Source: Candidatus Multivorans sp. | Lineage (GTDB): Bacteria; Acidobacteriota; Thermoanaerobaculia; Multivoradales; Multivoraceae | Length of the DNA stretch: 64,000 nt | Reading direction: 5' to 3' | NCBI GenBank assembly: GCA_965238135.1 | Contig: OZ250177.1 | Location: forward strand, 4,192,599-4,256,598 | Shown here: piece after piece, positions 22,049-47,400 of the stretch | Position numbering within the stretch: position 1 is the first letter of the stretch | How the letters are laid out: each line of letters opens with the position of its first letter | The notes under the pieces: generated by a model | The model's input: the letters and a program-made list of their open reading frames with translations, nothing else | Databases searched by the model: none | What the model was told of the DNA's origin: nothing | Position numbers and translations under genes: made by a program

Positions 22049-22094
22049 CGACTTATGATACTTGAGATCTCGGCGGTCGCCGCCGGATATTCAA

Positions 22095-22330: not shown

Positions 22331-22406
22331 ATCCGACTGCCGATGCCGCGCTACGCCAGGGAAGAGCGGCGGCGGCCGGTGTCGTCCGCCTCCGGGGCGC
22401 TCGGCC

Positions 22407-24708: not shown

Positions 24709-24886
24709 GCCTCGCTTCCGTAAGCCCGCCCACGGCCTGAACGACGCGAGCCGCCTTCCCTGACCCCGCTTTCCCTGTCACTATGCTGTCGGTTGAGGTG
24801 CCGCCGAGTCGCGAAAGCAGGGTCTCTGCCGGCTCCCTCGGGATAGGCCTCTGCCGAATGAGGCGGCCTTGTGCACCTTCAAGATA

Positions 24887-26190: not shown

Positions 26191-26402
26191 AAGATAGTAG
26201 CGATCGGTGGCGGTACGAACCGCGACTGCCTCTTGGGCAGGTTCGTTGATTCGCCGCATGGGATAGCCCCGACTGGCCAGTTCGTCCGCCTGGAGGCATC
26301 GCTCGGAAACTGAGCCACTCATCGCTCGGAAAGTGATCCACCCTCGGCCCTTGGCCGGTAGCTTGGTCTTGTACAGGAGACCAAGGCGATCGGAGGAAGG
26401 AC

Positions 26403-27845: not shown

Positions 27846-28594
27846 GCCGGGCCGCGCGCAGGGCCGTCATCAAAGAGGGCCTCAAGACGCTCAAGATGCC
27901 TTCCGTGCTGCGCGACTACGAGCAGAGGGCCCGTCAGGCCCAGGACGCACAGTGGGACTACGAGGACTACCTCTGGCAACTGCTCGAGGCCGAGATCCGG
28001 GATCGTGAGGCCCGCACCGTCGAGCGCCGGTTGCGAGCGGCTCGCTTCCCCGACCACAAGACGCTCGAACAGATCGACTTCGAGGCCTTGCAAGGCGTCT
28101 CCAAACCGAGGCTGCGCGAGCTGGCCTGCTGCGACTACATCGACCGCGGCGACGACGTGGTCCTGGTCGGACCCATCGGCACCGGCAAGACGCATCTCGC
28201 GATCGCTCTCGGCATCGAGGCCGCAAAGCGCCGGTACCGGGTCTGGTTCCGCAAGGCCTCCGATCTCGTCCGCGATCTGATCGAAGCCCGCGATCAGCGG
28301 GAGCTGGGGCGCCTGCAGCAGCGGCTTCAGCGAGTGGACCTGTTGATCTGCGACGAGCTCGGCTTCGTGCCCTTCGACCGCGCCGGCGGCGAGCTGCTCT
28401 TCAACGTCTTCGCCGACCGCTACGAGCGCCGCTCGACCATCGTCACCTCCAACCTCGCCTTCTCCGAATGGGTCCGGGTCTTCGGCGACGAGAAGCTGAC
28501 CACCGCTCTGCTCGACCGCCTCTCCCACCACGCCCACATACTCGCCACCAAGGGGTCCTCCTATCGGACACGGCTGCGGACCAAGACGTCATGA
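27842..28594 (+). CDS. istB: IS21-family helper ATPase IstB
   Basis: GTG start overlapping the istA stop. Walker A GPIGTGKTHLA, Walker B LLICDELG, ...SNLAFSEW... motif. Confidence 0.9.
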   Translation: MSRAARRAVIKEGLKTLKMPSVLRDYEQRARQAQDAQWDYEDYLWQLLEAEIRDREARTVERRLRAARFPDHKTLEQIDFEALQGVSKPRLRELACCDYIDRGDDVVLVGPIGTGKTHLAIALGIEAAKRRYRVWFRKASDLVRDLIEARDQRELGRLQQRLQRVDLLICDELGFVPFDRAGGELLFNVFADRYERRSTIVTSNLAFSEWVRVFGDEKLTTALLDRLSHHAHILATKGSSYRTRLRTKTS

Positions 28595-28857
28595 GCCTCA
28601 ACGGCGAGATACGCACAGCCTACGACCCCAAGTACCCGCCGCCGCTCAGCGAGCTGACCCGGTGCGGTCGGCTGCGGAATCTGCCGGTCTGGCGGAAAAC
28701 GGCGGACCGTTTCCCGCCAGACCTTGGAAAACCGGCAGACCGGTTTCCCACAGCTACCGCAGCCGCGGCGGCTACTCACTGAAGGAGACCCAAAAGGGCA
28801 GACTCGCGTACACTCGAAACACGGCCGAGGTGGCTCACTTTCAGATCGCTGATTGGC

Positions 28858-29442
28858 TCACTTTCCGATCGTCGCCAACATCCGCCAACCACTTCCGGCT
28901 GATCGTCTTGTGTAGGGCGTCGTGAGCGATCGCTGAGAGCGTCTGTTGGACGTCCCTGGGGTCGGCGATGAAGTGCGCCTCCAGTCCCCACTCCACCTTT
29001 CCCCAAGCTCCGCCTCGCCAATCGGTCGGACTTGGACTCGCCGGAGGCGTCGGAACGGGCCCGCGGCATTGCATGTCCAGGAGCGACAGAGTTGCTCGAA
29101 GGGCTCTCTGCGGGTTTTGGCTGCCAGGAAGACGCCGGTGAACGCCTCGAGGGTCGCCGATTGGTCGGCTGCGTCACACAACTCGGAGAGCTGCGGAGCC
29201 TCGGAGCCCGATGCGAAGACGAATCTATCGACGTTGCCAGCCAGTTCTTCGTCGATCGCTTGAAGAAGCCCGATGGAAGCGGAGGTCGGCCAACTCCACT
29301 TGCCGGATGTGCTGCGGCGTTTTACTTGGTGGAGTTCGCGCCGGTGCCCTTTCGTCACAACGAACTCGGCCTTGTCGAGACCGGGCTCTTCAAGGCGAAT
29401 GCTGTCCGAATCTCCGCGCCGGAGACGGACGGACTCGGCCAT
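28858..29442 (-). pseudogene. Hypothetical gene truncated by the IS21 insertion (189 codons, then read-through into the IS right end)
   Basis: The ORF runs 5 codons into the IS21 terminal repeat. The N-terminal region (AEFVVTKGHRRELHQVKRRSTSGKWSW...) has no clear family. Confidence 0.35.
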
Positions 29443-29582
29443 CGTCCACCCTTCTCGTAGCGGATACCCAGCTTGGCGGCGGGCCCTCCGGGCAGGGTCA
29501 TGTTCCGGGAACCCAGAACGGCGAGAGCAGCAACGTTGCTTTCTTGGCCTGCCTCATGAACCTGGGGCGACGAGCATCAGTG

Positions 29583-30662
29583 TCACGCATCCGTGGGGAA
29601 CCCCAGCAGGCCACCCAATCTCTGCTCCGCGAACAGGAGTCGGAGGCAGTCAGGAAGCTGCCTCTGCGGATTCTGGTAGAGCCGGACGCGAGCGATCCGC
29701 TCCGCACCCAGCGTGGCGTTGTCGCAGATCAGAACAGCCGCGGCGCGTGAAAGATAGGGCGCGAAGGGTCGGTTCTCAACGCCGGTTTCTTCTGGTGAGT
29801 CTGGCGCATGTATCGCCCGGAGTTCGTCCAGGTTCCAGGCAAAATCGGGGTTGCAGATGTTGACGGCGATCAGAAAGCACTTCTCCTTGAGGTTCGTCCT
29901 TCGCCAGTCTTCGGCCTTCTTGGCCAGGGCCCGAGTGAGTGGCGCCTGCGCGCTTACCGCGCCGCCTCGTGCTGGACCCCAGACTCGGCCCTGGCCGTTC
30001 GATGCGCGGGGTGGATCCAGGCGGCCGGTCAGTTCCCAGCCTCCTTCGCTGATCGTCTCTGACAGATAGCACTCTGCTTCGTGGCGACCCAGCCGCGAGT
30101 GCAACTCCCGCACTTCGTCTGGAGTGTGCGCCTTCATGAGGTCCTGGAATGGCCTGACGAGACCCCTTTGCCCCAGGGTTCTGCGAAGCTCGCCTTCGGC
30201 CCGAAGCCAGAGGTCCGAGTGCAGTCCCGTGAGGCCCTCCCCGATCTTGCGAACTGCGTCCTGCTCGTTCGCGTTCGAACTGAGAACGCCCCGGCCAAAG
30301 CCGCAGACGGTTGCCTCGACGTAGAACTCGTCCTCGCCGTGGCCCGCGAGAAAGTCGACGGTTGCACCAGAGGCACCGGGGAAGCCCGGCTCGACTTTGA
30401 TGGAGCAACCGAGGCGTTTCAGAATCGTGAAGACTTGTAGCTCGAAGTACGCGCTGAGGAATTCGGCGTCTCTGGACGATTGAAGGCGGTGCTTGAGGCG
30501 GTGCCTGCCGCTTTCAGGGAACGCCAGAAACCAGTGTTCCATCCACTCACGAATTGGGATCGCTTCCCTGCACGCTCCGCGCTCAAGGAACTGAAATGTG
30601 GTTTCGCCGTTATCGGCTGGCCCGTGTTTCTGTGCCACGGGTCGGAAGAGTGCGGTAGTCAT
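29583..30662 (-). CDS. Hypothetical protein (359 aa) in the DrmD/methylase operon
   Basis: ATGA overlap with the upstream DUF3644-like gene. Possible nuclease-like core (VDFLAGHGEDEFYVEATV), but no confident family assignment. Confidence 0.5.
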   Translation of the reverse strand: MTTALFRPVAQKHGPADNGETTFQFLERGACREAIPIREWMEHWFLAFPESGRHRLKHRLQSSRDAEFLSAYFELQVFTILKRLGCSIKVEPGFPGASGATVDFLAGHGEDEFYVEATVCGFGRGVLSSNANEQDAVRKIGEGLTGLHSDLWLRAEGELRRTLGQRGLVRPFQDLMKAHTPDEVRELHSRLGRHEAECYLSETISEGGWELTGRLDPPRASNGQGRVWGPARGGAVSAQAPLTRALAKKAEDWRRTNLKEKCFLIAVNICNPDFAWNLDELRAIHAPDSPEETGVENRPFAPYLSRAAAVLICDNATLGAERIARVRLYQNPQRQLPDCLRLLFAEQRLGGLLGFPTDA

Positions 30663-31726
30663 GGCCTGTTTGGCCCACTCTTGGGCCTCCAGCCCTTCAC
30701 CCGGTCGAACTCAGCTTTGTCACTGAGCTTCCGGAGAAGGAACTTCACCCAAGCCTCCTTGTAGCCGTAGCTCCTGGCCAACTCGTCGTAGATGCAGAAC
30801 TCCGGCCGAGTGGATGCCGGATTGTCGGCGCCAGTTGGAGGCCGGGCATTGTACGTCTTCCAGGCTTGCGTGTGGGTGTGCATGGAGAACTCCACGGGCA
30901 GGTGCTCGCGAAGGCGGCCCACGACTTCAGAAGGTCTGATGAGGCCGGCGCTAGCGACGGGCGTCCGCTTCTCTTTGATCATCGCAGCAAATTGCTTCAA
31001 CCGCTTCATCTCTTCTGGTTTCGTTGTGTCGTAGGGCACAAACTCCACTGCGAGGTCGGCTGCGCTGGCCCGGAGTGCGAGCTTTGGAAGCAAGAAGACC
31101 CTGACTGAGTACGACGAGCTCTCCAGCACTTCTGCCGGAAGACCGGCACGGTAGCTCTGGATGAAGTCCAAGAGGTCCTTGGCTGCCGACGAGCTCAGGC
31201 GTCGCAGCGCCTCCTTCTGCCCCTCGGGCCGGAAGGCAGAGAACTGGAGAGCCAAATCGAGATGCTCGGCAAGTGCTTGGTCAGTGCCGAACTTCGCGAC
31301 GAGAAGTTCCTCGAAGTTCATCAGCAGCGCTTGGCATTCGCCATAGAGCGCGGGATCAAGTTCGGGATGATGTCGATGTGCGATCTTGTTCCGGAGAAGC
31401 GACATGAACTCGAGGTTTCTGCGTTGTGGAGGGTTCTGGTCGCGATAGAACTGTCTGACACATGCGTTCAGTTCCCAGTGCTTCGGTTCGCCGTCGACTC
31501 TCTCGTACCTGGTGCCGCGTCCGGTGCCGCTTCGCACATACCATGGCTTTTGGCCGCGACGGTAGAAGATCGCGTGGAAGAGAGACGTCCACGCTATCGT
31601 CATGAGGACGGCAAACGTCCGCGTCCGAAAGGCGACGCCGGGCCTGTTGTAGATCTCAACCGCAGCCAGGCAAGCGTCTTCGGCCTGCTTCAGGTGGTCC
31701 TTGACGATCTTCGGGAGTCCGGCCAT
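30659..31726 (-). CDS. DUF3644-like protein
   Basis: Real start MAGLPKIVKDHLKQAEDACLAAVEIYNRPGVAFRTRTFAVLMTIAW matches the remembered DUF3644 N-terminus (IEIYNKP...F.ILM..AWE). ...LRNKIAHR... follows later. The first 142 codons of the track ORF are Pro/Arg-rich antisense overlap with the methylase gene. Confidence 0.5.
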   Translation of the reverse strand: MAGLPKIVKDHLKQAEDACLAAVEIYNRPGVAFRTRTFAVLMTIAWTSLFHAIFYRRGQKPWYVRSGTGRGTRYERVDGEPKHWELNACVRQFYRDQNPPQRRNLEFMSLLRNKIAHRHHPELDPALYGECQALLMNFEELLVAKFGTDQALAEHLDLALQFSAFRPEGQKEALRRLSSSAAKDLLDFIQSYRAGLPAEVLESSSYSVRVFLLPKLALRASAADLAVEFVPYDTTKPEEMKRLKQFAAMIKEKRTPVASAGLIRPSEVVGRLREHLPVEFSMHTHTQAWKTYNARPPTGADNPASTRPEFCIYDELARSYGYKEAWVKFLLRKLSDKAEFDRVKGWRPKSGPNRP

Positions 31727-31779
31727 TGTCAGTCGATTCTCGTCTCTCGTGGGCTTTGGCCTGGGCAGAATTTCGGTGG

Positions 31780-34700
31780 TCAGTCGAACAGGTCGGTCTG
31801 GTCGGCGTCGTCGGGATTGGGGGTCTTCGGGTCGTCCTCGTCGGAGGTGGTGAGCCATTGATCCCAGCGATGGCGGTCTTCGGCTACTTCGGAGAGTGGC
31901 TGGTCGGCGGTGGGGGAGGGTTCCTCGGCTGGGCTTTGTTCGAGATCGGCGAGGAGTCTGCGGTAGGCGTGTTCGCCGAGGAGGTGGCGGGCGTGGAGAT
32001 GGGTTTCGGCCCAGGCTTCTTCCGGGGTTTGGGCGAGTTGCCAGTCGTAGAAGCGGGGGCCGAGTTCGCTGGCGACGGGTTGGTGCTCTCTGGCGCGGTC
32101 GTCGTGGCCGAGGCCGTGGTCGGCGAGGCGGAGGGTTTCGGGTAGGCGCCAACCTTCGCCTTGGTTCTGGTTCATGAAGGACTGGATGCCGGCGTCGCGG
32201 TCGCCGCGAGCGGAGTCGATGTGGTGCTGGAGGTCGGCGAAGGCGATCTGGGCGAGGACGGTGAGGCGGAGTTCGGGGGGCTTGGTTTTGTCGACTCGCC
32301 AGAAGCCGCGAGGGTCGAGCCTGTTGGCGGCTGACGACCGTGTGGCGATTCTTGTTGTTGGCAGGTCAGTGTTGTCCAGCACGTGACGCAGGTCCGCAGT
32401 TTCGCAGTTGAACATCGAAGCTGAGATCGCGTCGATCGCCGCGCGTAGTCGCAGCCGTTCGGCGGGACTGAGCGCGTCGATAAGGCCGGGTCGGGTGTCT
32501 TGCTTGAGGCGGAAGGGGGCGAAGACCTTCGGGAAGAAGTTCATCTTGCTCGTGAGCATCGACAGGGCTCCCAACGTAGTGGGTCCGCTGCGGAGAACGA
32601 GGATCGTCTCTCGAAGGACATGCCAATTGAGAGTGGCGCCGGCGAGTCGACGGCGGAGTAGCCAGTCGAAGACGAAGCTGGCCAGCAGGGCTTCGGCACA
32701 GGCAATGTCTTGGATGGTTGACTCGGCGCGGCAGCTGCTGAGAACTGGAACCTTGTTGCCGCATGGGAAGGGAGGAACGACGGCGCCGATGAACGACCGG
32801 GCGTCGGTGCTCCGCGCTATATCCCGAAATCCTATTCGTGCGCTCCAAGTTCGCAGCAAGCCTTGGGCCGTCTGGCGGTCCATCAGGTATTGCGGATTCC
32901 AGACCAACGCGTCTGGAGTGTTGTAGTCCCACTTGGCTTGCAGGCCGGTGCCGCTCAGCCAGCCTCGGGCACTCGGCATGAATGGCTGGATCATGATTCC
33001 CTGGTACAGAGGCAGCGCCACGTCCTTGATATCGGTCTCCTGGATCCAGGCGTCGGCCTCTCTTGACAGGATGATGCCCTTCGGGATGGCGACCCTGGGG
33101 ATGGGCAGCCGGTCGTAGGGCGGCTGGGCGCATCGGATGCGTGAGGGTGTGCCCTGGACGTCGCCGGGGGCGAGCAGGTGGCCGTGGATGAAGGTCTGTT
33201 CGGCTTTGCGGCGCTCCGGGCCGGCCTCGCAGTCGAAGAGCCAGTCTTCGAGTTCGACTGCTGCCGGTTCCGGTAGGCCGGAATCGACGCCGAGTTCCAC
33301 CCACAACTCCCGGATCGGCCGCCAGTTGCCGAGCAGCCAACGGCTGTACTCGTCGGGGCGGTAGCCCTTCGCCTCCCACTGGGGCCGGGGTGGGAAGAGC
33401 TTGGAGTCGTTCGTCATGTGGAACTCTGTCGCGTAGCGGATGCCCCAGCCGTCGGGGCCGTCGTCGCCCAGGAGGACGGAGTTCGCGTAGATCTTCTCCA
33501 GGATCTCCAGGTCGCGCTGTGACTCGATCTCCAGGATCGCGCGGCTGTTTGGGCTGAACTGGAGCACCTGCTCGCGGCTGTACGGCACGGCCAGGTCCTC
33601 GGCCCGCTCCCAGTCGGTCAGGTCGCGGCGCATGAAGACGGCGCGGATGGCCTTGGTTGTACCGCCTTTCCGGACGATCACCGGGTTGAACTTGAACCGG
33701 CTGTCGATCGGGAACAGCTTGGCCCGGTTCTCGAAGCCGAACACCCACTCCCAGGTGCAGCGCTCCAGGAACAGGTCGCGCAACGCTCCGGTGCCCTTGT
33801 CGGAGTAGAGGCCGGAGGGCACGATGAAGCCGAGTCGGCCACCGTCGGCGAGCAGCGCGTGGGCCTGCTCAAGAAACAGCTTGTAGAGGTTGAGGTCGGC
33901 CGATCCCTGATGCCTGAAGGAGTGCTCCGTGTCGGCATAGCCGCGGGAGCGGCGTCTGGCCTTCCGCCAGCGGTCGTGCAGCCGGAGGTTCGGCTTCCCC
34001 CGGGCAGCGACAAAGCGGCGCTGGCTCTTGTCGTTCTCTTCCGGGTCACCGAAGGGTGAGGCGGCACAGGTCACGAAGTTCGATTGAGCGCGGAAGCGGG
34101 CGTTGTAGTTGAGCCAGTCTCGTTCGCTCGTTTCGTCGTCGTTGAAGTAGTCCTTCTGTCGGCGTACGGCTTCCTGCTTGCCGTAGGAGCGGTAGAGCGG
34201 ATCGATGCTTGAGAAGAACTCCTGAGACTTGGGTTTGGCGATGTCCCACGGCGGGTTGCCCAGCACCGCGTCGAACCCCGAGCCCCGCTCCCTGAACACG
34301 TCCGGGAACTCCAGTTCCCAGTGGAAGAAACGCATGTCCGCTGCGATGCGGTCGGCCACGGCGAGCGTGCCCGGTTCAGGGTCGGTGAAGGTTGTGGGCA
34401 GGGGAGGGCAGTCCAGTTCGTCTGCGGGCCAGAACCAGCAGGCGCACCACAGGTCCATTGCCTGCTTGAGCGAGCGCCATTCGCTTGAGCCGAGGAGTTC
34501 TGCGCGGTAGAGGCGGGCGCGGGCCGCGGAGTCCTGAATCGGCAGGTGATGCATGCGTTCGAGTGCTTCAAGCGCGGTGCGGTGTACGCCGGCCGCTTGT
34601 TCGAGCAGGTCTTCGTGAAAGAGAGTCGGGCCTTCCAGCACGTGGCGGAGGTCCGGGGTCAACTCGTCCTTGACCCATGCCTTGATTGCCTTCGTCTGGG

Positions 34701-37253
34701 CGCCCTTCTGGTAGTGGACGCCGTTCGAGTGGTTCTTGTCGCCGGCTTCACGGTTCTTCCAGGCCATGGAGGGGTAGTGCTGGAACTGGTCGAACCATGC
34801 GCCGATGAGTGAGTTCCCGCACCGGATCTTGTGATCGAGGAAGGAGAACGGCAGGTCGCGGTCCATCGTTTCGATCCAGAGCGACAACTGGCAGAGGGAG
34901 ACAGCCAGCGGATCCACGTCGACGCCATAGATGCAGCGTTCCACCACGTAGCGCTTGAGCTTGGCCCGGAGCCGCGGCTCGAAGTCGTCGGCATCGGGAG
35001 GGCAGGGGATCAGTTCGTCGCCGGGTTGCTCGACGGCGCCGGAACCTGTTCCGGGAGCGCCTTCTGACCTTCCGGCCAAGCCCAGCAAGCGGACCAGAGC
35101 GCGGTTGTCCTGCTTCTCGATCCGGTCGTGGTGCTCCAGCGAGGCGTAGAGCGCGTCGGTCAGGAAGCGTAGCGCCGCCAGTGGGAAGCTGCCCGAGCCG
35201 CACGCCGGGTCGCACACCTTCAGGCTCAGGATGTCTTCCGGCCGCTTGGGAGTCCAGTTCGCGGGCGGCGCGTGGCGGTCGGGTTCGCCGTTGGCGTCAA
35301 GCGGCGGGTCGTACGCGAGTGGGCGGAGAGTGCGCTGCACGGTGGGCACGGCGAGGCCGGGTCGGGTGTAGAAGCTGCCCGAGCCCTTGCGGGTGCCGCC
35401 CCAGCGGACCAGGTACCACTCGCCGGGGAGGACGACACGGCTCACCAGTTGACTCGCGCGCTTGCGGAGCGCCTCCTCGTGGGGGCCGAGGAACGTAGCC
35501 TGCGGCTTGGAGCGGCGCGGCTTCTTCACCAGGCCGGCGGCAAGGGCGGCGCGGCGCGCCCAGGTTTCGGCGCGGGTGCGGGTGGCGTGGCGGAGATCGT
35601 CGGTTGTGGCGGCGCCGTCCGAATCGCCTGAGGGCTCGGCGTGCTTCGCGGCGGGTGCGGGCAAGATGCCCACGTTCTCAGGCTCGTCTTCGTTCGGCTC
35701 GTCCGCCGGTTCGGCGTCCTTCTTGCCGGCCGTCTTCTTCATCGCCGCGAAGAGGTCTCGCAGTGCCTTGTCGTCCATCGCCTCCAGGCGGGCCAGGGGC
35801 AGCGCGGGCTGCTCGCCGACCGAGAGGAAGATGACCGAATCGTCGCTCGGCGCCGTCTTGAGTTCATAGTCCAACAGGCCTTCGTAGAGCACGCCGATGT
35901 ACTCGGTCGAGAGATCCGAGAAGTCCACCGGCGCCGACACCAGGCGGCTGCCGCGGCCCTGGCGGATGCGGACCTCGGTTCGTGTCAGGCGCTCCAGCAG
36001 ATCGTGAACCAGGGAGTCCGGCAGCAACTCTTCCCGCAGGCATGCGGTTTCGAAAGTGGCCAGGGAGCGGGAGAGGCCGTCCGCGGCCTCGGGCGAGCCG
36101 GGCGCGAACAGGTCGCCGCCGTAGGCGGGAACCGGCAGATCAGGATGGTGCGACCCGTCCCGCACCAGGTTGAACAAGGCCAGCAGCCGCGGCCAGGCGC
36201 CGTAGCTGCGAGTCTGCGAGCGGCCAGCCGCCGAACGCCTTCTGAGCGCTTCGTGCAGACCCCCCAGCCCGTAGCCGTCGTGGTAGACGGCGTCGTCGCG
36301 CGGCAGGAGCCCCCGCGCTTCCGCGAAGAGGATGACGACGAGGCGCATGATCACGCGGCAGGCGGCGCGGTAGATGTCCGCCGGATCGACCGTCGGGCAA
36401 TCTCGTTTCAGCGCTTCACCGTGGCTCTGGATCAAGAGTTCGACCGCCTCGCGCACCCGCTCGCCGAGGGCCTCCGAGAGTTCGGACTGGCCCTTGCGGC
36501 TGTCTCTTACGGCTTGCAGCAAGGGCGAATCGGACCCATCCTCGGGCGGCGTCCACAGGGGCGGCTGGATCAGGGTGGTGAGGGCGTTCAGGGCCGGCGT
36601 CGGCGCGCCGTCGGCGACCAGAGGTCGATGTCCCACTCGCACCAGGCATCGAAGTCGAGACCGGCGAAGAGGAGCCGCCACTGGCGGCCGTTCGTGACCA
36701 GGGCCAGCCGTTCGTTGCCGGCGCGAAGCCAGCCGAGGACGCGACTCGTTTCGCGCCGGCCGCGGCCGATGCCCACCTGCTTGTCGGAGGAAGCGAAGAC
36801 GGGCAGCACCGCGCCGCGGGGGCCGAGCCAGAGCTGGCGCGGCCGGACGCTCTCGCCGGTCAGCGCGCGGCGACTCCACTCGGCGGGCACGCGGTTGCCG
36901 CGCAGCCAGGACCCGCAACCGGGCTCGAACCCGCACAGGCGCTCCAGTACGAAGGCGATGAACTCCGACCTCTCGCTGGTGCTGCTCGGGCCGTGACCGC
37001 GCATCAGCTCCGCTCGTCGACGGAGATCGCTTTGGAGCCATGATCCGGGGGATTCCGGCGTGGAGTGGGCGGCGATCTCGCCCTGGCGCTGAGCGTCGAG
37101 CAGCAACCCGCCGTGGCGCAGGTCGTTCCAGCCCGGCAGGCCGGGGCGGGACCCGGATGCGGGCAGGATGCCCGCGTTCCCAGGGCCGACGGGGGCGCGG
37201 CTGCCGCCAGCGGCGCTGCCGTGCCCCTGACGACGAGGCGGGCGGCGGCTCAA
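31780..37253 (-). CDS. PglX/DrmMI-like (Eco57I-type) N6-adenine DNA methyltransferase, ~1.8 kaa, carrying a frameshift near 36615
   Basis: Motif I VCDPACGSGSFP. Motif IV LGNPPWD. Long C-terminal specificity-like region. The N-terminal ~210 aa are encoded in a different frame (36588-37253, TTGA overlap with the SNF2 stop) from the remaining 1610 aa. Confidence 0.8.
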
Positions 37254-40200
37254 GGTAATCGCACCTCAATGGTCACGGGGAAGGCCTGTGCCTTTCCCGC
37301 TAACGAGTGCCGCTTTGGAAGCAGGCGGTTGACGATCCGCTTCCGCTCACGCTCCAACTGGTCCCGCGCATCTTCGTAGTGCTGCCGCCGGCGTTCGATC
37401 TCCCGTTGCTTCTCCTGGATCGAACTGGCGAGCCGGTCGAGGCTGCTGCGCTGTTCGAAGAGCAGGCGTTGCTGCTGCTCGCGGCGGAGCTTGTCGATCT
37501 CGCGCTCCAGCCGCTTGAGGCTGGCCTGCTCGATCAGTTGGGAAACCTCGCCCTGGCGGCTCCGGTAGCGGTCGTTCTCCCGCTTCAGGGCGCTGTCGCC
37601 GTCGGTCCGCAACTGTGCGTGCAGCGAATCGGTGAGCTCGTCTGCGTGGCGCGCCGCCACCCCTTCGAGAGCGGCTTCGACGCTGAGGAAGATCTTCTGC
37701 GCCTGGTCCCGTTCTGCCGGCGTCGGCGCTGCGGCGTTGTCCGGGCACGACCCGGCGCCGGCGACGTACGCAGTGCTTGCCAGATTGCGTGCGGGAGCAT
37801 GGGCCATGGGCTCTTCCAGCACGCCGTCCCTCACCGGCAGGGTCAGCGTTCGCACCCAGTGGTGGAACGTTTCGCGGAGTTCGTTGACCGCGAGTTCCTC
37901 CAGACTGAGCAGGATGAGGGCGTCGAAACCGCGCGGCACGCCGCCGCGCCGGACCGTCCAGCGCGCCACCTGGCCCGAACCGGGCAGGCGCCGCATGGTG
38001 AGAACTCGCAGCGCGCGTTCGACCATCGGATGCGCCAGGTGCAGCAGTGCGACTTCGGGCCGCGGTGAGAACACGTCGCGTTCGCCGACCTGCTGTAGCA
38101 GCGAGTCGGGATCGAAGGCGAGGTGCTGCGTGGCACCGAGGACGCCGTCGGGGGACGGAAGCCGCAGCGATTCGTCGATCGTGTCGCGCCATCCCGGGAG
38201 GTCGGTGCGAAGCACGCGCCAGAAGTCGGCTTCGGTGCCCCGTTTCTGGGCGGCCGCGCTTCGAACCCGATCGACTTGAGGCCGGCCAACGTTGATCGCC
38301 ATCGCCGCTTCGAGCGTCTGCCGAAGTGCTGCGGGATCGAAGTCGATCTCGCTTGCCAGGTTCCTGAGGAGACCGGACGCGTTCTGGTCGTCTCCGTCGG
38401 GGCGCGGGAGATCTGGTTCACTGGGCGCCTGCCTCTTGTCGACATCGGTCTGCTCTGCGGCGGCGAAGAGCTCCGGAATCTGGTCTTGCACCCGGCGGAT
38501 CTCACGGGTCAGCTTGTGGTCCAGTTCGAACTGGACTCTCGAGAGGTCGGCTCCTTCGATCAAGCGCTTGTGGGCAGCGGTGTCGAACAGTTCGTTCACC
38601 GAGCCCAGATCCGCGCGGATTTCGTCCGCCTTGCGGATGACGTGGTCGAGGAACTTGAGGTCGGGGTCGTCGTCGCTGAGGAAGTGATGCACGGTCACGT
38701 CGCGGGCCTGGCCGTAGCGGTCGAGGCGGCCGTTCCGCTGTTCCAGGCGCGATGGGTTCCATGGACAGTCGTAGTGCAGTAGGTAGCGTGCGCTCCGGTG
38801 GAGGTTGAGTCCTTCGGAGGCTGCGTCGGTGGCGACGAGTATGCGTACGCTGGATTCCGGGGCATTGAACGCCTCCCGGACCCGGTTGCGTGCGGCGTCG
38901 TCCATTCCCCCAACGCCGCCTGAACCGAAGAGGGTCAGGATGCGGGCGCCGTCGGCCGGGTCGCCGTTGCCCGGGTCGTAGTGCTCTCGCAGGCGACGTT
39001 CAAGGTAGTCGAGGGTCGTCTTGTACTCGGTAAAGACAATGAGGCGTTCGTCGTCGCGAAAGCGGGTTGCGGCGTTGCCGCCGCCCGGGACGAGCAGAAG
39101 TTCCTCGATCAGGGCCGCGAGAGCGTCGAAGCGGGCGTCGACCTCCGGGTTCTGCTCAACTGTTGGAGGGCCGACCAGGTCGAAGCCGAGAGTTTCCAGG
39201 GCGTCGTCGATGGCAGCCATTTCGTGCTCCACGGCGCCCGCGACGTTGCGCAGCCACGCGCCGACGACGCCGGCGGCGGTGCCGGTGCGCTGCTCCGTTT
39301 CCCGGTCGTCGGAGCTCTCCCGCTCGACGGATCGCTTCGCCGCCGCGACATCGGCATCCGTGGTGCGGGCAGCCTCATCGGCTCGGGAGTAGCCGTCGCG
39401 CGCACGGCGCCAGGAGTCGGCGAACGCCGTCGGGCAGGACAGCAGACGCTTGCCCAGGATCTCGATCGCAAAGCTCCCGGCCCGTTCGCCCACTTCGCCG
39501 GCAGCGATGGTGCTGCGCACCGCCTTGCGGAAGGCGTCGAAGGCGTCGGACAGGGCGGCCTCGCGCCGGTCGCGGTCCAGGAGGAGAGGCTGAGGCTGGT
39601 TCCGTTTGCAGAATCGAGGTGCGGCGCTCTGTTGGTTCAGTTCCCGCTTCAAACGGCGGACCACCAGTTGGCCGATCCGCGCCCGCTGCCGGGCGGTCAG
39701 TTCGTCGGTCTGACTGACGCGCACGGGATCGAGAACCTCCAACAGGCCGGTGAACGAGCGCGTGTGCCCGTTGTGCGGCGTGGCGGACAGGAACAGTCGA
39801 TGTTCGAAGCAGGGAGCAACCTGCCGCAGCATCTGGCACAGCTCGCTGTCGTCGCCGAACGGTGACGGCATCAGGTTGTGGCACTCATCGACGATGAGCA
39901 GATCCCAGGGGAGACGGGGCGAGCCTTCCGGTGTTTGGCTGGCTGCCAGGAATTGCTCCTTGATGTCCGGCTGGCGAAGGTAGTGATAGGAGGCGATGAT
40001 GCGGCTGAACGAGCGCCAGGGACTCGCGTCGATGCCCAGTTCCCGGCGCAGTTGCTCGGTGCGCCCCCGGTCGACGATCTCGAACGGCAAGGCAAACTTG
40101 GTTTCGAGTTCGTCGCGCCACTGAAGGCGCAAGGCCGCTGGTACGAGGATCAGGACACGGCGAATGCGGCGGCGAAGCAGAAGCTCCTTGAGAATCAGTC

Positions 40201-40678
40201 CCGCCTCGACCGTCTTGCCCAGGCCGACATCGTCGGCGATCAGCAGGTTCACACGGGGCATCCGCAGCGCTTGCAGCAAGGGGACGAGCTGGTAGTCCTC
40301 TACCCGGATGCCGCTGTGTAGCGGACTCGATACGGGTTGACGATCGAGCGGGCCCTCGCCGTCGGGGTCGAGGTATGGCATGAGCGATGTCCAACGCGCA
40401 GCCCGCAGCAGGGCGTCGAAGTCATCGGCCGGCATGGGACCGGTCTCGTGGACCTGGGGCATCCGGCTCGGCTCGAGCAGCTCGCGTCCCGGTTCGAGTT
40501 CCCACAGGAGGCGCTCGCTGTGCGGCGAGTCGTGGTCCTTGTAAGCGACCTGTACCAGGTGGAGCCGGCCGGCTTCGCCGTCGTACGGATTGACGGCGGC
40601 GACGATGCCGCGGCGGTTGCGGACTCGGGCCAGCATGCCGACGCGTGGTACGTCGGTGGTTGTTTCAGTGTGGGGCAT
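37250..40678 (-). CDS. SNF2-family helicase (DISARM DrmD-like)
   Basis: LIADDVGLGKT (motif I), LLIVDECHNL (II), FLSATPHNG (III) and the SNF2 C-terminal helicase region. 1142 aa. Confidence 0.85.
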   Translation of the reverse strand: MPHTETTTDVPRVGMLARVRNRRGIVAAVNPYDGEAGRLHLVQVAYKDHDSPHSERLLWELEPGRELLEPSRMPQVHETGPMPADDFDALLRAARWTSLMPYLDPDGEGPLDRQPVSSPLHSGIRVEDYQLVPLLQALRMPRVNLLIADDVGLGKTVEAGLILKELLLRRRIRRVLILVPAALRLQWRDELETKFALPFEIVDRGRTEQLRRELGIDASPWRSFSRIIASYHYLRQPDIKEQFLAASQTPEGSPRLPWDLLIVDECHNLMPSPFGDDSELCQMLRQVAPCFEHRLFLSATPHNGHTRSFTGLLEVLDPVRVSQTDELTARQRARIGQLVVRRLKRELNQQSAAPRFCKRNQPQPLLLDRDRREAALSDAFDAFRKAVRSTIAAGEVGERAGSFAIEILGKRLLSCPTAFADSWRRARDGYSRADEAARTTDADVAAAKRSVERESSDDRETEQRTGTAAGVVGAWLRNVAGAVEHEMAAIDDALETLGFDLVGPPTVEQNPEVDARFDALAALIEELLLVPGGGNAATRFRDDERLIVFTEYKTTLDYLERRLREHYDPGNGDPADGARILTLFGSGGVGGMDDAARNRVREAFNAPESSVRILVATDAASEGLNLHRSARYLLHYDCPWNPSRLEQRNGRLDRYGQARDVTVHHFLSDDDPDLKFLDHVIRKADEIRADLGSVNELFDTAAHKRLIEGADLSRVQFELDHKLTREIRRVQDQIPELFAAAEQTDVDKRQAPSEPDLPRPDGDDQNASGLLRNLASEIDFDPAALRQTLEAAMAINVGRPQVDRVRSAAAQKRGTEADFWRVLRTDLPGWRDTIDESLRLPSPDGVLGATQHLAFDPDSLLQQVGERDVFSPRPEVALLHLAHPMVERALRVLTMRRLPGSGQVARWTVRRGGVPRGFDALILLSLEELAVNELRETFHHWVRTLTLPVRDGVLEEPMAHAPARNLASTAYVAGAGSCPDNAAAPTPAERDQAQKIFLSVEAALEGVAARHADELTDSLHAQLRTDGDSALKRENDRYRSRQGEVSQLIEQASLKRLEREIDKLRREQQQRLLFEQRSSLDRLASSIQEKQREIERRRQHYEDARDQLERERKRIVNRLLPKRHSLAGKAQAFPVTIEVRLP

Positions 40679-40795: not shown

Positions 40796-40861
40796 CTCCG
40801 ACTCCGAGATTTCAGCGCTCCGACTCCGAGATTTCAGGCTCCAGACTCCGAGATTTCAAGG
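40796..40861 (+). repeat. 3 x 22-bp tandem direct repeat CTCCGACTCCGAGATTTCAG(NN) in the 180-bp region upstream of the SNF2 gene
   Basis: Read directly. The third unit has a 1-nt insertion and overlaps the last codons of the GT2 gene. Confidence 0.7.
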
Positions 40862-43144
40862 TCCTGGGGCGCGGCGACGGAACATCGTCGCGCCGATCAG
40901 CAGCACAGCCGCCGCCGCGTACGGCAGCGCCAGCAGGCGGATCATCACGGGCACGTGCGCCTGGGTGTGCGCGAAGAAGACGGCGTACCAGGCGGGGACG
41001 GACCAGCCGGCGGCGAGGATGCCGGCCCAGCGCCAGGGGTCTTCGAGGGTCCACCAGCGGCGCAGGACGTAGACGGTGGCGGCGGCGAGCGTGGCGGCTG
41101 TGGCGCCGATCAGGATGAGGGCAAGCAGATCCGAGCCGAGGCCGACGGTGCCGAGGTGGTCGCCAACTCTCTCGAGGGTCCGTTCGAGGGTCGGCCGGCT
41201 GGCGAAGAAGGGATCGATGTCCGGGTGGATCGAACTGCGCGGGGCGCCGTAGAGCCGGTGGGTGAGCTGGTCCCAGAACTTGAACAGGACGGGTTCGCGG
41301 AACACGAGCTCGGCGAGGAGGACCCGCAGCAGGAAGACGGCGGCGAGGCAGCCGACGTAGGCGCCGGCGCAGCGGATCAGCAGCCGGCGGCGCCAGGTCC
41401 GCGAATCGCCGGGGTGGCCGGACGGTTCGGCGGCGTGGTCAGGGGCCGGCGGCGGGGCGATCGCAAGAGCCACAAGCAGGACGGAGAGCCCGATCAGGGC
41501 GCTGCCGAACAGGAGTTCGTGGTAGGCGATCAGGGCGCCGAAGGCGGCAAAGAGAACGATCTGGAGGCTTGGCCGCCAGTGCGCGATACGGAGTCTCGGC
41601 ACGGCGAGGAACAGGCCGACCGTCAGCACGTTCGAGGCGCCGGCGGTGAAGCTGCCGGCGCGGTCGTCGAGGTCGAGGAAGAGCAGGAGGCTGCCGAAGA
41701 GCGCGGCAAGCGCAACGGCCTGGAACAGGGTCTGGCGCCTCACGAGTGGGTTCGGCGTCACACCTGGGGTGGGCGGGAGACCGAGTCTTTGCCGGAGGCT
41801 GGCTGGACGCGCGGGTTCCCAGGCCGGAGGCAGGGTGGCTATCGCTGTCGCGATGATCAGGGCGCCGGCGAGTCCGAGGCCCAGCAGACCGAACGTCAAC
41901 ACCCGCAGCCGCTGCCGCAGTCCCTCGACGCCGACTCGGGGCAGCAGCCATTGCAGCATGACGCGCTGGCCGGCCCAGTACTGGTGGTAGAAGACGGTCA
42001 GGTAGTCGGAGTCGTCGACGGCGCCCTGGTCGAGGCGTTGCTTGAGCGCGTCGCAGGGGCGCTGCGGGCGCGTGTAGCGGTACACGCGGCGGCCGGAGAC
42101 GGTCAGTTCCAGGGTCGAACCGCCGCGGTCGAGGGCCATCAGGCTGAGCAGGCAGTCGTTGAAGCTCTCGCGCGAGTCTCCGATCGTGCGTCCCGGCTGT
42201 TCGTAGGAGGCGCGCAACGCTTCGGCCACCGGCGCCGGATCGGCGCGGACGGCGAGCCAGTTCAGCGCCAGGAAGACTGCGGTGGCCACGACGGTGACGG
42301 TGGCGACCAGGGCGGTGGCGCGGAGCGGCCCCAGGCGTGCGGAGTGCGGGCTGGAAGTCCGCGGGGAAGAGAACAACGCACGCAGGATCCGGAAGCCGTC
42401 GCGGAACGCCCTCAGTTTGCTCGTCGATCCTTCCGGCCGGGCGAAGTAGGGGCAATGGACTTCATCCCAGGCGAGGTCCGAGGACGCGGCGAACAGGGTC
42501 AGCTCGGTCTCGATCTCGAATCCGTTCGACCGCGCCGGGAAGTGGTCCACGAAGCGGCGCGAGAAGGCCCGGTAGCCGGACAGAAGGTCATGGACCTGGG
42601 GGCCGCAGCGCCAGCGGGCGAGGGCGGTGAAGAGGCGGTTGCCGAGGCGGCGCAGCGGGGTGTAGGCGTGCGCGTCGGCGCGTTTGCGGGCCGCCACGAG
42701 CATGTCGAGGTCACGCTCCTGGAGCGTCGAAACAAGGTGGCCGGCGCTCTCGGCGTCGTAGGTGCCGTCGCCGTCGGCCATCAGGTAGATGTCCGCGTCC
42801 ACCTCGCGGAACAGGCGGCGGATCGCCAGGCCCTTGCCGCGCCGGGGTTCGGCGATGACGGTCGCTCCGGCGGCCGCGGCAGCATCGGCGGTGCCGTCGT
42901 CCGAACCGTTGTCGCAGACGTAGACCGTCGCCTCGGGCAGAGCCAGCCGGAACGCAGCCACGACGTCGGCGATGGTCTCCTGCTCGTTCAGGCAGGGGAG
43001 GAGGACGGCGATGCGGGTGGGGTTCAGGGTGCGTCGCCGCCTGCGGTGGGCTCTGCTTGCCTGCCGGCTGCCGGGCCGAGCGCGAACAGGTGTTCCCGGC
43101 TCCTGATGTAGAGCCGGTCGCCGACGATTGCCGGCGTCGCCCAC
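40856..43144 (-). CDS. Family-2 glycosyltransferase fused to a C-terminal polytopic membrane domain
   Basis: IAVLLPCLNEQETIADVV...VYVCDNGSDDGT...RGKGLAIR...MADGDGTYD is the GT2 (DPM1-like) core. The true start is probably near 43020 (just upstream of TRIAVLLP), because the listed start overlaps the upstream gene by 120 bp. Confidence 0.65.
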   Translation of the reverse strand: MGDAGNRRRPALHQEPGTPVRARPGSRQASRAHRRRRRTLNPTRIAVLLPCLNEQETIADVVAAFRLALPEATVYVCDNGSDDGTADAAAAAGATVIAEPRRGKGLAIRRLFREVDADIYLMADGDGTYDAESAGHLVSTLQERDLDMLVAARKRADAHAYTPLRRLGNRLFTALARWRCGPQVHDLLSGYRAFSRRFVDHFPARSNGFEIETELTLFAASSDLAWDEVHCPYFARPEGSTSKLRAFRDGFRILRALFSSPRTSSPHSARLGPLRATALVATVTVVATAVFLALNWLAVRADPAPVAEALRASYEQPGRTIGDSRESFNDCLLSLMALDRGGSTLELTVSGRRVYRYTRPQRPCDALKQRLDQGAVDDSDYLTVFYHQYWAGQRVMLQWLLPRVGVEGLRQRLRVLTFGLLGLGLAGALIIATAIATLPPAWEPARPASLRQRLGLPPTPGVTPNPLVRRQTLFQAVALAALFGSLLLFLDLDDRAGSFTAGASNVLTVGLFLAVPRLRIAHWRPSLQIVLFAAFGALIAYHELLFGSALIGLSVLLVALAIAPPPAPDHAAEPSGHPGDSRTWRRRLLIRCAGAYVGCLAAVFLLRVLLAELVFREPVLFKFWDQLTHRLYGAPRSSIHPDIDPFFASRPTLERTLERVGDHLGTVGLGSDLLALILIGATAATLAAATVYVLRRWWTLEDPWRWAGILAAGWSVPAWYAVFFAHTQAHVPVMIRLLALPYAAAAVLLIGATMFRRRAPGP

Positions 43145-44421
43145 ACCGACTCGCCGAGTGAGAAGCTGCCGAGCACTTCGTGCGTCCTGCCGGCGCGCAT
43201 GATCGCGATGTCGCCGTCGGTGTTGGCCATCAGGATGCGGCCGCCGCCGCCGACCATGGAGGCGGAGTAGCGGCCGCGGATCGGCAGCCGGCCCCCTTCG
43301 TAGACGACCTTGCCGGTGCGGGCGTCGAGGCAGGTGATCACGCCGCCGTCGTTGGTCAGGTAGAGCAATCCGTCGTAGAGCAGGTTCGAAGGCACATAGC
43401 CGGTGCCCTTGCGGTAGGTCCAGACCCGCGCGTCGCTGCCGGTCAGGTCGCCCCGGCTGTCGAGGCGGATCGCGAACACCAACTTGCCGGGAAAGCCGGA
43501 GCTGAACACCGCCAGGTCGCCGACCGTCATCGGAAGGTGGACCGCGTTGTTCAGTAGACCCCGGGCGCGCCAGAGCTCGCGGCCGTCGGCGGGGTCGTAG
43601 GAGATGACGAACTCGTTGCCGCTGGTCAGCAACTGGCTCTGACCGTTGTGTTCGACCACGATCGGCGTGGTCCAGCTCGCCTGCACCGGCCGCTTGCGCT
43701 TCCAGACCTCCTCGCCGGTCAAAGCATCGAGCGCGACGATGAAGGAGTCGTCGCCGCTGTCCTCGTCGGCCTGAATGACGAGCAGGCCATGGGCGAGCAC
43801 GGGCGACGTGCCGACGCCGAGGCCCACCGTCTTGATGTCGCCGATGTCACGCTGCCATGCGGGCTCGCCGTCCACGGCGTAGGCGTAGACGCCCTCCGAG
43901 CCGAAGTAGGCATACACGCGCTCGCCGTCGGTTGCCGGTGTCGGCGAGGCGTAGGACGAGTTGGAGTGACGGTCGTCGAAGACGCGGCCCGCGTAGGCCG
44001 TGTGCGACCACAGAGCTTTGCCGGTGTCGGCGTCGAGCGCTATCACCTTCATCGTGTGGTGGCGGTTGCCGTCTGTTGCCTGGGGGTGGCGGAAGGGCTG
44101 GCCGCCGAAGGTGTGGTCGGGGGCGGCAGCGCCGGGGATCACATGGCCTGTGATCGCCGTGGTCAGGAACACGCGACCGCCCGAGATCACGGGCGAGGAG
44201 TGGCCTCGGCCCTCAACCTTTGTCTTCCAGAGCAGGTTGCGATCGATGTCGAGGTCGGCTGCCGGGCCCGGGCCGGAGCGTGCGATGCCGCTGCCGTCGG
44301 CGCCGCGAAAGCCGGTCCAGTCGTTGGCGTCGCTTCCGCCCGGCAGCGACGACGACACAAGGACGCCTGCGACCAGCGCCGCCGCGACGATCCCGAGGTT
44401 CTGCGAGGGGTTGCTCTTCAT
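43024..44421 (-). CDS. Secreted PQQ-repeat beta-propeller protein
   Basis: Signal peptide followed by repeated PQQ/WD-like blades (GRVFLTT..., ALDADTGKALW..., ALDALTGEEVW..., CLDARTGKVVY...). Confidence 0.75.
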   Translation of the reverse strand: MKSNPSQNLGIVAAALVAGVLVSSSLPGGSDANDWTGFRGADGSGIARSGPGPAADLDIDRNLLWKTKVEGRGHSSPVISGGRVFLTTAITGHVIPGAAAPDHTFGGQPFRHPQATDGNRHHTMKVIALDADTGKALWSHTAYAGRVFDDRHSNSSYASPTPATDGERVYAYFGSEGVYAYAVDGEPAWQRDIGDIKTVGLGVGTSPVLAHGLLVIQADEDSGDDSFIVALDALTGEEVWKRKRPVQASWTTPIVVEHNGQSQLLTSGNEFVISYDPADGRELWRARGLLNNAVHLPMTVGDLAVFSSGFPGKLVFAIRLDSRGDLTGSDARVWTYRKGTGYVPSNLLYDGLLYLTNDGGVITCLDARTGKVVYEGGRLPIRGRYSASMVGGGGRILMANTDGDIAIMRAGRTHEVLGSFSLGESVWATPAIVGDRLYIRSREHLFALGPAAGRQAEPTAGGDAP

Positions 44422-44425
44422 GCCC

Positions 44426-47400
44426 TCACTCCTGCTCGGTCTTGATCGGATCGGCGGGTCGGCCGGGCAGGGTGCGCGGATCCTCGGCCAGTTTCTCGAG
44501 CAGCAGGTCGACTGCCTTCTCGAGCTGCGGATCCCGGCCGTCCAGGAGATCGCGAGGCAGGTTCGTGACCTCGAAGTCCGGCTCTACACCGTAACCCTCG
44601 ATCACCCAGTTGCCTTCCGGGTCGGCGGAACCGGCCTCGGGCACGTTGACCGAGCCGCCGTCGATCAAGGGCGCGCGGCCGTAGATGCCGACCACGCCGC
44701 CCCAGCTTCGCTTGCCGACGATGGCCCCTAGGCCGGCGCGGCGGAACTGGTAGGCGAACTGGTCGCCGTCCGAGGCGGTGTCCTCGTCGATCACGCACAC
44801 GAGATAGCCGTGGAAGACGCCGCCCGGGGAGGTGTCGACCGAGTCGCGGTTGCGCTCGAAGTCGAGCATCAGGGTCTCGCGGCGCAGGCGCTCGATGATC
44901 ATCGGCGATACGTTGCCGCCGCCGTTCGAGCGCACGTCGACGACCATGGCCTCCTTGCGCACCTGGCCGTAGTACCACTTGATCCACTCGCGGATGCCGT
45001 CCGCCGACATGTCCGGGATGTGGAGATAGCCGATCCGCCCCTCGCCGCGCTCGGCGACGATGCGGCGGCTGCGCTCGGTCCAGGCCAGGTAGATGAGGGC
45101 GTCTTCGCTCGAGATCGGGTCTACCAGGACGTTCCGGGTTTCGGTGCGGTCGGCGCTTGAGCCGACTGTGAGTTCCACCGGTCCCCGTCCTGCCTCACGC
45201 AGGAGCTGGAACGGGTTTCCGGTCGCGCCGAGCTCGCGGCCGTTGATCGTGAACACGTAGTCGCCTTCCTCTACGCCGACGCCGATTTCGGTCAGGGGCG
45301 AGCGGTATCGCGGCTCCTCGTTCTGGCCCTCGAAGATGCGAGCGATGCGGTAGCGCCCGGCGTCGGGATCGAGTTCGAAGCGGGCGCCGAGCAGGGCGGC
45401 CCGCGGCCGGTCCGGGACCTCGTAGTCGCCGCCGGTGACGTAGGCGTGGGAGACGTTCAGTTCGGCGACCATCTCACTCATCACATAGTTCAGATCGCTT
45501 CGGTGGCCGACATGAGCTAGCAGGGGACGGTACTGCTCGCGCAGCGCCTCCCAGTCGTAGCCGTGCATGTTCGGCGCGTAGAAGAAATCGCGGAAGCGGC
45601 GCCACACCTCGTCGAAGATCTGCGCCCACTCCTCGGTCGGCACCCGGTCGACGACCAGACCGGCGAGGGAGAGGGTCTTGGCGTCGTCGCCGCCGACGTC
45701 GAGGAGCCGGAACGATCTGCCCTCGCCGACCAGCAGTTTCTTGCCGTCGCGGGACAACTCGAGGCTGCCGATTCCCTTCGCCAGGCTCTTGCCCTCGCGC
45801 TTCTTGAGGTCGTACGAGAAGACCTCGGTCTGAACGTCGGATGAGCGCCCCAGGTAGCCGGCGCCGGTGCGGACGTAGAACAGCTTGCCTTCGGCCGCGC
45901 CGAGGCCGCCGTAGTTGTCGGCCTCGAGTGGGAAGCGGGCGACGCGGCCCGCCAGACCGTCGAGGTCGATGCGGTCGCGGGCTTCCTCGTCCTCGGCGTC
46001 GCCGTCGTCATCGTCATCGTCGGCGTGCTCAGCATCCTCGTCGCCGTTCCCGTGCTCGCCGTCTTCGTCTTCGTCTTCATCGTCGTCTTCGATCTCGACT
46101 TCGTCGCTCCGCGGTGGGAAGGGGTGGGGCGTGTCCTCGCGCAGGGCGAGCGCGTAGATCCAGGTCTCGCGGTCGGCGGCGTAGTTGTACTCGAAACTCC
46201 CGATCTGCGGCTGGAACTGCCGGTCGGACAGGAAATAGAGGTAATCCCCGCCGGGCTCGAAGACGGGGAAGAAGTCGTTCCACATCTCCGATGTCACCCG
46301 GGTCATGGTCCGGGTCTCGACCTCGAACAGGTGGATCGAGCTGAACTCGTTCTCGTCGCCGAGTTCGACTGCCAGGAAGTCGCCGCCGGGCGACCAGTCG
46401 TAGGCGGTGCCGAAGGGGCGCGGATCGTCGGCGACCTCAATCACCTCGCGCGCTCCGGTCGTGGCACCGGCGTCGACGATTCCCAGCCGCCCCTGCTGGT
46501 CGACGAAGGCGATGCGGTCGCTCCCCGGCGACCACAGCAGGTTGTTGTAGTGGCGGCCGACGCTGTCCTCCGTGAGCTGAACCGGTTCGCCGCTGCCGTC
46601 CTGGTCGACCGTCCAGATCTCGGTCTCGCCGCTCTGGTCGGAGACGAAGGCGATGCGCCGGCCGTCGGGCGACCAGGCGGGATCGCGGTCGTTGGCGCCG
46701 GAAGTGCGGGTCAGGTTGCGGGTGGGACCGTGCTCGATCGGGACGCTGAAGATGTCGCCGCGGGCTGAGAAGGCGGCCCGCTTCGCCTTGGGGCTGAGCG
46801 AGAAGCCGGAGACCTGGCCGGCCGCCGAGACCCGGCTAGGCCGGCGTGCGAGCTGATCCGTCGGCACGTGGATCGGGACCGGGCGCGCCGCCGCGGATGC
46901 GAGATCGAAGACCTCGAGCGATCCGGCCTTCTCGTACACGATCCGCCGGTTCGCCTTGTCCGCGCTCGGCCAGCGCACGTCCCACTGGTCCTCGTGCGTG
47001 AGTTGGGCGAGGTCGCCTGAGTCGACATCGTAGGAGTACAGGTTCAGGGTGCCGTCGCGGTCGGAGGAGAAGTAGATCGTGTCGTCGATCCACATCGGGT
47101 CGCGGTCCGAGCGGCGGTGGTTGGTGACCTGGACGGACTCGAGGCTGTCGAGGTCGAGGATCCACAGATCCTGCGCCCAGCCGCCCTCGTAGCGCTTCCA
47201 GTGCCTGAAGTCGCGGGTGACCGGCGAGTAGACGACGCGCCGGGCGTCGGGTGAGAGGTCGCCGCCGCCCGACTCGGGCATCGGCAGCGCCCGGGGCAAT
47301 TCCCCGGCGGTGTCGACCAGGAACAGCTTCGTGTCGCCCAGGTCCCAGCCGTCCCGCAGCGACCGGAACAGCACGGACTTGCCGTCGGGCGACCAGCCGT

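Follow-up and report, generated by a model that had tools for sequence, protein, structure and literature searches.

The stretch of DNA analysed here (the window) comprises 64,000 nucleotides from Candidatus Multivorans sp. (Acidobacteriota; GenBank assembly GCA_965238135.1, contig OZ250177.1, positions 4,192,599 to 4,256,598 of the forward strand). Two very large open reading frames (ORFs) lie head to tail on its minus strand at 37250..40678 and 31780..37269, as described in an earlier note on this DNA. They encode a SNF2 helicase of 1,142 amino acids (aa) and a methylase (1,829 codons in the long frame), respectively. A large helicase gene with a fused DUF1998 domain lies on the same strand, 13.5 kb downstream of the methylase gene. 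The helicase and methylase genes are very probably armA and armB, with a distant armC, of an ARMADA type I anti-phage system. ARMADA, the 'disARM-related antiviral defence array', combines a YprA-like helicase, a BrxHII/RapA-like helicase and a PglX-like methyltransferase, and is presented as a 'missing link' that joins DISARM to Druantia (Bell et al. 2025, PMC12458937). The features of the core genes are listed below by window coordinates, strand and type, with the basis of the assignment in brackets.

37250..40678, minus strand: armA, SNF2/RapA-like helicase (Pfam, PADLOC DrmD model, identity to Escherichia coli ArmA, linkage)
36618..37253, minus strand: N-terminal part of armB, aa 1-212, in its own frame (TTG start in TTGA)
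36617..36618, minus strand: armB frameshift, one T lost (blastn alignment; homologues read DLWF here)
31780..36617, minus strand: remainder of armB, about aa 213-1824, comprising a helical region, the methyltransferase, a region like a target-recognition domain (TRD) and a conserved C-terminal region
10468..18242, minus strand: armC, YprA/DruE-like helicase with fused DUF1998, Vsr and S24 domains (Pfam, PADLOC, Protein Data Bank (PDB) sequence matches)
11044..11430, minus strand: Vsr-type nuclease domain of ArmC (TTPD ... YLDG..H)
10471..10980, minus strand: S24 domain of ArmC (Ala-Ala-Gly 10900..10908, Ser 10780..10782, Lys 10645..10647)
16144..17833, plus strand: IS110-family insertion sequence within armC (contiguous armC of relatives; Pfam transposase match)
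19364..20720, minus strand: armC remnant, an internally deleted pseudogene (blastn pieces; DruE N-terminus)

The SNF2 protein contained the Pfam domains SNF2-rel_dom and Helicase_C. It matched the PADLOC DrmD model PDLC02621 from end to end (E = 4.5e-188) and the BrxHII model more weakly (235 bits). The GLGKT motif (40211..40225) and the DECH motif (39878..39889) were intact, and armA is apparently an intact gene for a SNF2/RapA-like (BrxHII/DrmD-like) helicase. Identity to E. coli ArmA was 31-33%, and the top PADLOC model of that validated protein was likewise PDLC02621.

Both PglX-type motifs reported in the earlier note were located in armB: DPACGSGSFP (motif I) at 35182..35211 and NPPW at 34246..34257. 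They lie approximately 320 residues apart in a methyltransferase of the gamma-class N6-adenine type, which was matched by Pfam Eco57I (7.5e-22) and also by N6_Mtase. Among the PADLOC models, REase_MTase_IIG PDLC03622 scored 1,212 bits, DrmMI PDLC02643 scored 390 bits (one third of the type IIG score) and PglX scored 24 bits. The earlier note rightly saw in the gene pair a defence module with proteins like DrmD and DrmMI. Identity to E. coli ArmB was 24% (E = 2e-32), and the validated E. coli protein ranked the models in the same order, with type IIG best and DrmMI lower.

The ArmB family comprised more than 2,100 relatives. Among those listed, lengths of 1,750-1,950 aa and identities of 58-80% to the window protein predominated. 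Nearly all were without a functional name, the usual label being hypothetical or 'type IIG'. For comparison, E. coli ArmB has 1,644 aa. The excess of about 500 aa over PglX and DrmMI holds against those families, but it is no oddity, since the length of the listed relatives makes it a trait of ArmB's own family.

Comparison of the ArmB profile with PDB sequences gave no match at E <= 0.01, and fold comparison was used instead. The N-terminal domain has a restriction-endonuclease-like fold with no conserved catalytic (D/E)xK. The expected positions differ freely among homologues (TDDK, TADA, DGGR and DDGG; SSDK in the window), so that nuclease activity of this domain is improbable. Pfam searches with the two ends of ArmB (its first 213 and last 539 aa) gave no significant match. 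Invariant columns were sparse at approximately aa 1440-1600, and a weak PADLOC methylase-model match at 1477-1557 overlapped this poorly conserved segment, which is a plausible target-recognition region.

For comparison, 80 related loci (designated by L numbers) were taken from one-genome-per-species contigs of about ten phyla. These included Acidobacteriota, Gemmatimonadota, Pseudomonadota, Planctomycetota, Spirochaetia, Actinomycetota, Nitrospirota, Verrucomicrobiota and others. At three of them (L053, L068 and L078) armB spanned 6.5-6.9 kb and carried insertions of 1.3-1.5 kb, not IS110-like, in its C-terminal third. Past the insertion, the L053 and L078 proteins were 42-43% identical to the window protein, versus 63-66% ahead of it.

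The TTGA overlap between the helicase stop (TGA, 37252..37250) and the methylase start (TTG, 37253..37251) that the earlier note had pointed out is genuine, though this TTG begins the ORF 36588..37253, which is in another frame than the long ORF. In the long frame, the ~217 leading codons give an Arg/Pro-rich, out-of-frame translation. The genuine N-terminus (MSRRPP...GLPGWNDLRHGGLLLD...CEWDIDLW) is encoded in ORF 36588..37253 and matched homologues from the first residues. At the junction of the two frames homologues read CTCTGGTTCGCC and the window reads CTCTGGTCGCC, and hence one T of a TT pair at 36617/36618 (codon 212/213) has been lost relative to all homologues compared. Alignment by blastn with L017, L002 and L045 placed a 1-nt gap at this site, so that the methylase is indeed frameshifted, as had been claimed. 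The gene call of the source assembly is truncated to 1,618 aa, consistent with the frameshift; repaired ArmB is 1,824 aa long. Programmed frameshifting was ruled out, as the homologues compared read through with the extra T.

Window ArmC contained DEAD, Helicase_C and MZB/DUF1998 domains in one polypeptide, plus Peptidase_S24. PADLOC DruE models gave partial matches only (308 bits), with the DruE3 models best, and DrmA models gave at most 32 bits. Sequence matches in the PDB were the large helicases 9tu7 and 9wae (2,108 and 1,970 aa) and YprA 6znp. Structure modelling covered the C-terminal 369 aa of ArmC. Towards the C-terminus, a Vsr-like fold and the motif given above identified a Vsr-type PD-(D/E)xK nuclease domain.

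The protein terminates in a complete LexA/UmuD-like S24 domain (Pfam, 3.8e-09). The cleavage-site-like Ala-Ala-Gly motif, the serine and the lysine were invariant in 44 sequences, and PF00717 was present in nearly all homologues of the ArmC C-terminus. The spacing of Ala-Gly, Ser and Lys resembles the arrangement in E. coli LexA (A84-G85/S119/K156). A candidate defence gene, DUF4268/PDC-S11 (9552..10532, minus strand), shares 65 nt with the 3' end of armC; it had no homologue among the related loci.

A 1,690-bp insertion, approximately 17 codons past the Walker A motif, splits armC between ORFs 17370..18518 and 10468..17373. Its boundaries were set by comparison with the contiguous armC genes of L020, L004, L005 and L008. 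The opposite, plus strand of the insertion carries the gene for an IS110-family transposase (ORF 16402..17784; Pfam DEDD_Tnp_IS110, 1.3e-34, and Transposase_20). No terminal repeats were found for this element, as expected for IS110. An intein was ruled out, since translation of the insertion's sense strand looked non-coding and the transposase gene lies on the other strand. A 108-bp piece of the same element, 87% identical, recurs at 28670..28776 beside an IS21 element. At L052 it is armB that is interrupted, at about 11600..13530, by an IS110 element 69% identical to that of the window.

Four collinear pieces within 19364..20720 were 82-96% identical (blastn) to non-adjacent parts of armC, and a PADLOC match to the DruE N-terminus was found in the same interval. 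This segment is the remnant of a duplicated or replaced armC allele.

The association of the three genes was conserved across the related loci. The SNF2 gene stood immediately upstream of the methylase gene at 76 of 81 loci, mostly overlapping it or less than ~100 bp away. Where at least 9.9 kb of downstream DNA was available (70 loci), an ArmC-like gene began downstream on the same strand at 50. The earlier note was right to tie the pair to the distant helicase-DUF1998 gene. In relatives the gap between armB and armC measured 42 bp at its shortest and 9.9 kb at its longest, and was below 350 bp, making the genes adjacent, at five loci. De novo clustering of all flank ORFs yielded no further broadly conserved partner. 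Identities of ArmA, ArmB and ArmC to the window proteins were correlated (rho 0.57-0.66), a weak indication since identity also tracks species relatedness.

Published ARMADA data allowed the system to be placed more closely. ArmC has been described with a C-terminal Vsr nuclease, and type II additionally has ArmD (PMC12458937). Type I ArmC is further characterized by BrxA-like, zinc-binding beta-barrel and MarR-like insertions. Table S1 of that paper gives CP175563.1, DASYEH010000008.1 and MEKT01000042.1 under 'ARMADA Type I helicase'. All three contigs were represented in the locus set, as L015 (Syntrophus buswellii), L024 and L062, respectively, and window ArmC was 57-61% identical to their helicases over residues 406-2301. 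The window thus shares with type I the three-gene core of a SNF2 helicase, an N6-adenine methyltransferase and a YprA-family helicase with fused DUF1998 and C-terminal Vsr nuclease, together with the absence of ArmD. It differs in its variant gene order, in the S24 domain of ArmC, in the defence cargo between armB and armC, and in the frameshift and insertion sequence.

Type II is represented by z5899-z5902 of E. coli EDL933 (PMC12458937, PMC13463889). It has the same armA-armB-armC order and the same PADLOC pattern as the window (DrmD PDLC02621; REase_MTase_IIG above DrmMI; partial DruE). E. coli ArmD, a RelE-GajB-like helicase, had no tblastn match in the window and one weak partial match (L044) among the related loci; no homologue of DruH was found in the window or the related loci. 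The absence of both from the window favours type I over type II. The distance between motif I and NPPW is similar in the two ArmB proteins (366 residues in E. coli, ~320 in the window), but the tail of E. coli ArmC consists of two Vsr domains and an EEP domain, versus Vsr plus S24 here. Type II was ruled out by the lack of ArmD and by the identity of only 24-33% between the E. coli armABCD proteins and those of the window.

Several points weigh against assignment to a decayed ARMADA type I system. Type I usually has armC first, whereas the window order is armA-armB-(cargo)-armC; this order is an accepted variant found in many archaea and cyanobacteria (PMC12458937). Experimental testing of ARMADA covers type II only (PMC12458937). 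Membership of the ArmC clade was judged by a proxy, identity to the helicases on the Table S1 contigs, and would hold to the extent that the proxy does. Table S1 was matched by contig and not by protein identifier, although for Syntrophus the number in the locus tag agrees with the position. No ArmC was found within about 10 kb downstream at 20 of the 70 loci. Many of these loci may merely be cut off by the flank limit, because the distribution of gap lengths was flat up to that limit; at one of them, L051, ArmC lies upstream of armA in the armC-first order. Finally, the single-base deletion in armB, taken alone, could be an assembly error.

Four other explanations were weighed. The best placed, to which we give only a small probability, is that two unrelated systems share one defence island, namely a SNF2-methylase module and a separate Druantia-like helicase. 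The 13.5 kb of genes and three insertion sequences in between favour this, and cargo separates the genes in most relatives too. ArmC does resemble Druantia type III: it is a giant YprA helicase-nuclease that scores best on DruE3 models and matches 9tu7 and 9wae in sequence. Yet the locus differs from that system in lacking DruH, in carrying Vsr instead of PLD, and in possessing the methylase and SNF2 helicase. Strand and order were kept at the 50 loci described above, in many phyla and with wholly different cargo, and the genes were adjacent at five. The identity correlation speaks in the same direction, weakly since it tracks species phylogeny, and the published definition of ARMADA was itself built on the same gene association (PMC12458937).

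Slightly less probable is the interpretation of the earlier note, in which the pair forms the drmD-drmMI core of a class 1 DISARM system, the remainder of which has been rearranged. The SNF2 and methylase proteins are homologous to DrmD and DrmMI, as the PDLC02621 and DrmMI matches attest, and DISARM also contains a YprA-family helicase and DUF1998. However, the DrmD model is equally the top model of validated E. coli ArmA and so does not discriminate, and the methylase scores three times higher on the type IIG model than on DrmMI. The helicase and DUF1998 are fused in the window and separate in DISARM (DrmA and DrmB); no separate DrmA or DrmB was found in the window. The fused protein lies far nearer DruE than DrmA by PADLOC score. 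The nuclease of the window is of Vsr type, whereas that of DISARM (DrmC) is a PLD protein, and no PLD was detected in any island ORF scanned. The class 1 DISARM assignment does not hold; the fused YprA-family protein is closer to DruE/ArmC.

The label 'split, rearranged DISARM/Druantia hybrid' was apt in so far as ARMADA is intermediate between the two, but not as a one-off, given conservation in about ten phyla. Nor does the split reflect rearrangement; it is due to cargo and insertion sequences in a gap that is variable in most relatives. The earlier reading is thus partly supported: its general idea was right, but the family to which it assigned the pair was not.

A stand-alone type IIG/IIL restriction-modification enzyme aided by a helicase was considered less probable again. 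ArmB shares with BpuSI, DrdV, MmeI and PglX an N-terminal nuclease fold, a gamma-class NPPW methyltransferase and a variable C-terminal region. Against this, its nuclease motif is unconserved, it is ~1,800 aa long and it needs partner genes, the SNF2 gene being its obligatory partner and a nuclease-bearing helicase being linked to it. Validated ArmB, moreover, matches the same model class. A BREX variant (PglX plus BrxHII) is scarcely credible: the BrxHII and weak PglX scores could be cited for it, but neither PglZ nor BrxC was found among the large ORFs scanned in the 64-kb window or in the conserved neighbour clusters of related loci, as the earlier note had argued from the window. The locus is therefore apparently a further, decayed instance of a system already published, ARMADA type I.

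A mechanism for ARMADA type I is proposed from the genetics of ARMADA II, in which defence is non-abortive and depends on every gene, on the Walker motifs and on NPPW (PMC12458937, PMC13463889), and by analogy with BREX, DISARM and Druantia III. ArmB would tag the host's own DNA by methylating adenines in a motif that its variable TRD-like region recognizes. Unmodified incoming DNA would be detected or tracked by ArmA and ArmB together. ArmC would then load on the unmodified DNA, unwind it and cut it with its Vsr nuclease, and defence would proceed without death of the host cell.

The system is most likely inactive in this genome, to judge from its gene structures, because armB is frameshifted, armC carries the IS110 element and the duplicate of armC survives as a deleted remnant. 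IS21 and ISL3 elements also lie between armB and armC.

The gap between armB and armC (18243..31779) holds 13.5 kb of other genes and insertion sequences, with the following features.

20888..31726, mixed strands: cargo region between armB and armC (Pfam and PADLOC scans)
30659..31726, minus strand: DUF3644/PDC-S19 gene
29583..30662, minus strand: 359-aa ORF, no annotation
26412..28594, plus strand: IS21 istA/istB
24894..26093, minus strand: ISL3 transposase
22407..23972, minus strand: HNH-DUF222 gene
20888..22048, minus strand: AAA_14-DUF4143/PDC-S01 gene

The DUF3644/PDC-S19 gene and the 359-aa ORF overlap each other by 4 nt and stand immediately after armB. Among relatives, DUF3644 follows armB alone at L005, L006, L007 and L010, and the 359-aa ORF alone at L052 and L058. 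A cargo scan was carried out with 103 gap ORFs from 40 loci. It returned AAA_21/AAA_15 ATPases resembling AriA, PtuA or RmrA (11 ORFs), Peptidase_M78/CapP-like proteins (7 ORFs), NsnB (7 ORFs), Schlafen AlbA_2 (6 ORFs), AbiEii (5 ORFs) and ThiF (5 ORFs), and also E2, JAB, Macro, Fic, patatin and reverse-transcriptase domains. The gap behaves as a variable slot that holds other defence genes, an observation that may be new; a variable cargo slot between armB and armC is not discussed in PMC12458937. The LexA-like S24 self-cleavage domain on ArmC may be new as well. The main text of the ARMADA paper does not mention 'S24', 'LexA' or 'peptidase', and its Table S2 gives no S24-type domain for ArmC (PMC12458937).

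The window has a G+C content of ~67%, and an island of lower third-position GC extends over roughly 8.8-40.9 kb, with ABC-transporter genes on one side and a glycosyltransferase gene on the other. No tRNA genes were found in the window as island borders. Approximately 14 Thermoanaerobaculia-type genomes carry the system at the same chromosomal site, beside tricorn protease, PQQ-propeller and GT2 genes (40856..47797 in the window; L002-L010, L017, L020, L045, L052, L058 and L082). The shared site suggests a stable hotspot and not a recent mobile insertion.

For annotation, PADLOC-type models name the parts of ARMADA as DrmD, type IIG and DruE. PDLC02621 (DrmD), PDLC02572 (DrmA) and PDLC03622/03614 (REase_MTase_IIG) matched ArmA or ArmB end to end, the validated E. 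coli proteins included, and PDLC02572, though labelled 'DrmA', in fact matches the SNF2 protein. Tools of the 2023 era are likely to call ARMADA loci type IIG or incomplete DISARM systems. A named defence system can now be given for a gene pair that is large and widespread and has mostly gone without annotation. The window copy displays a path of ARMADA decay: armB is frameshifted, the nuclease-helicase gene has taken up an insertion sequence, and its duplicate has undergone deletion. The LexA-like domain of ArmC and the cargo slot within the operon provide leads on the regulation of ARMADA type I and on the growth of defence islands.

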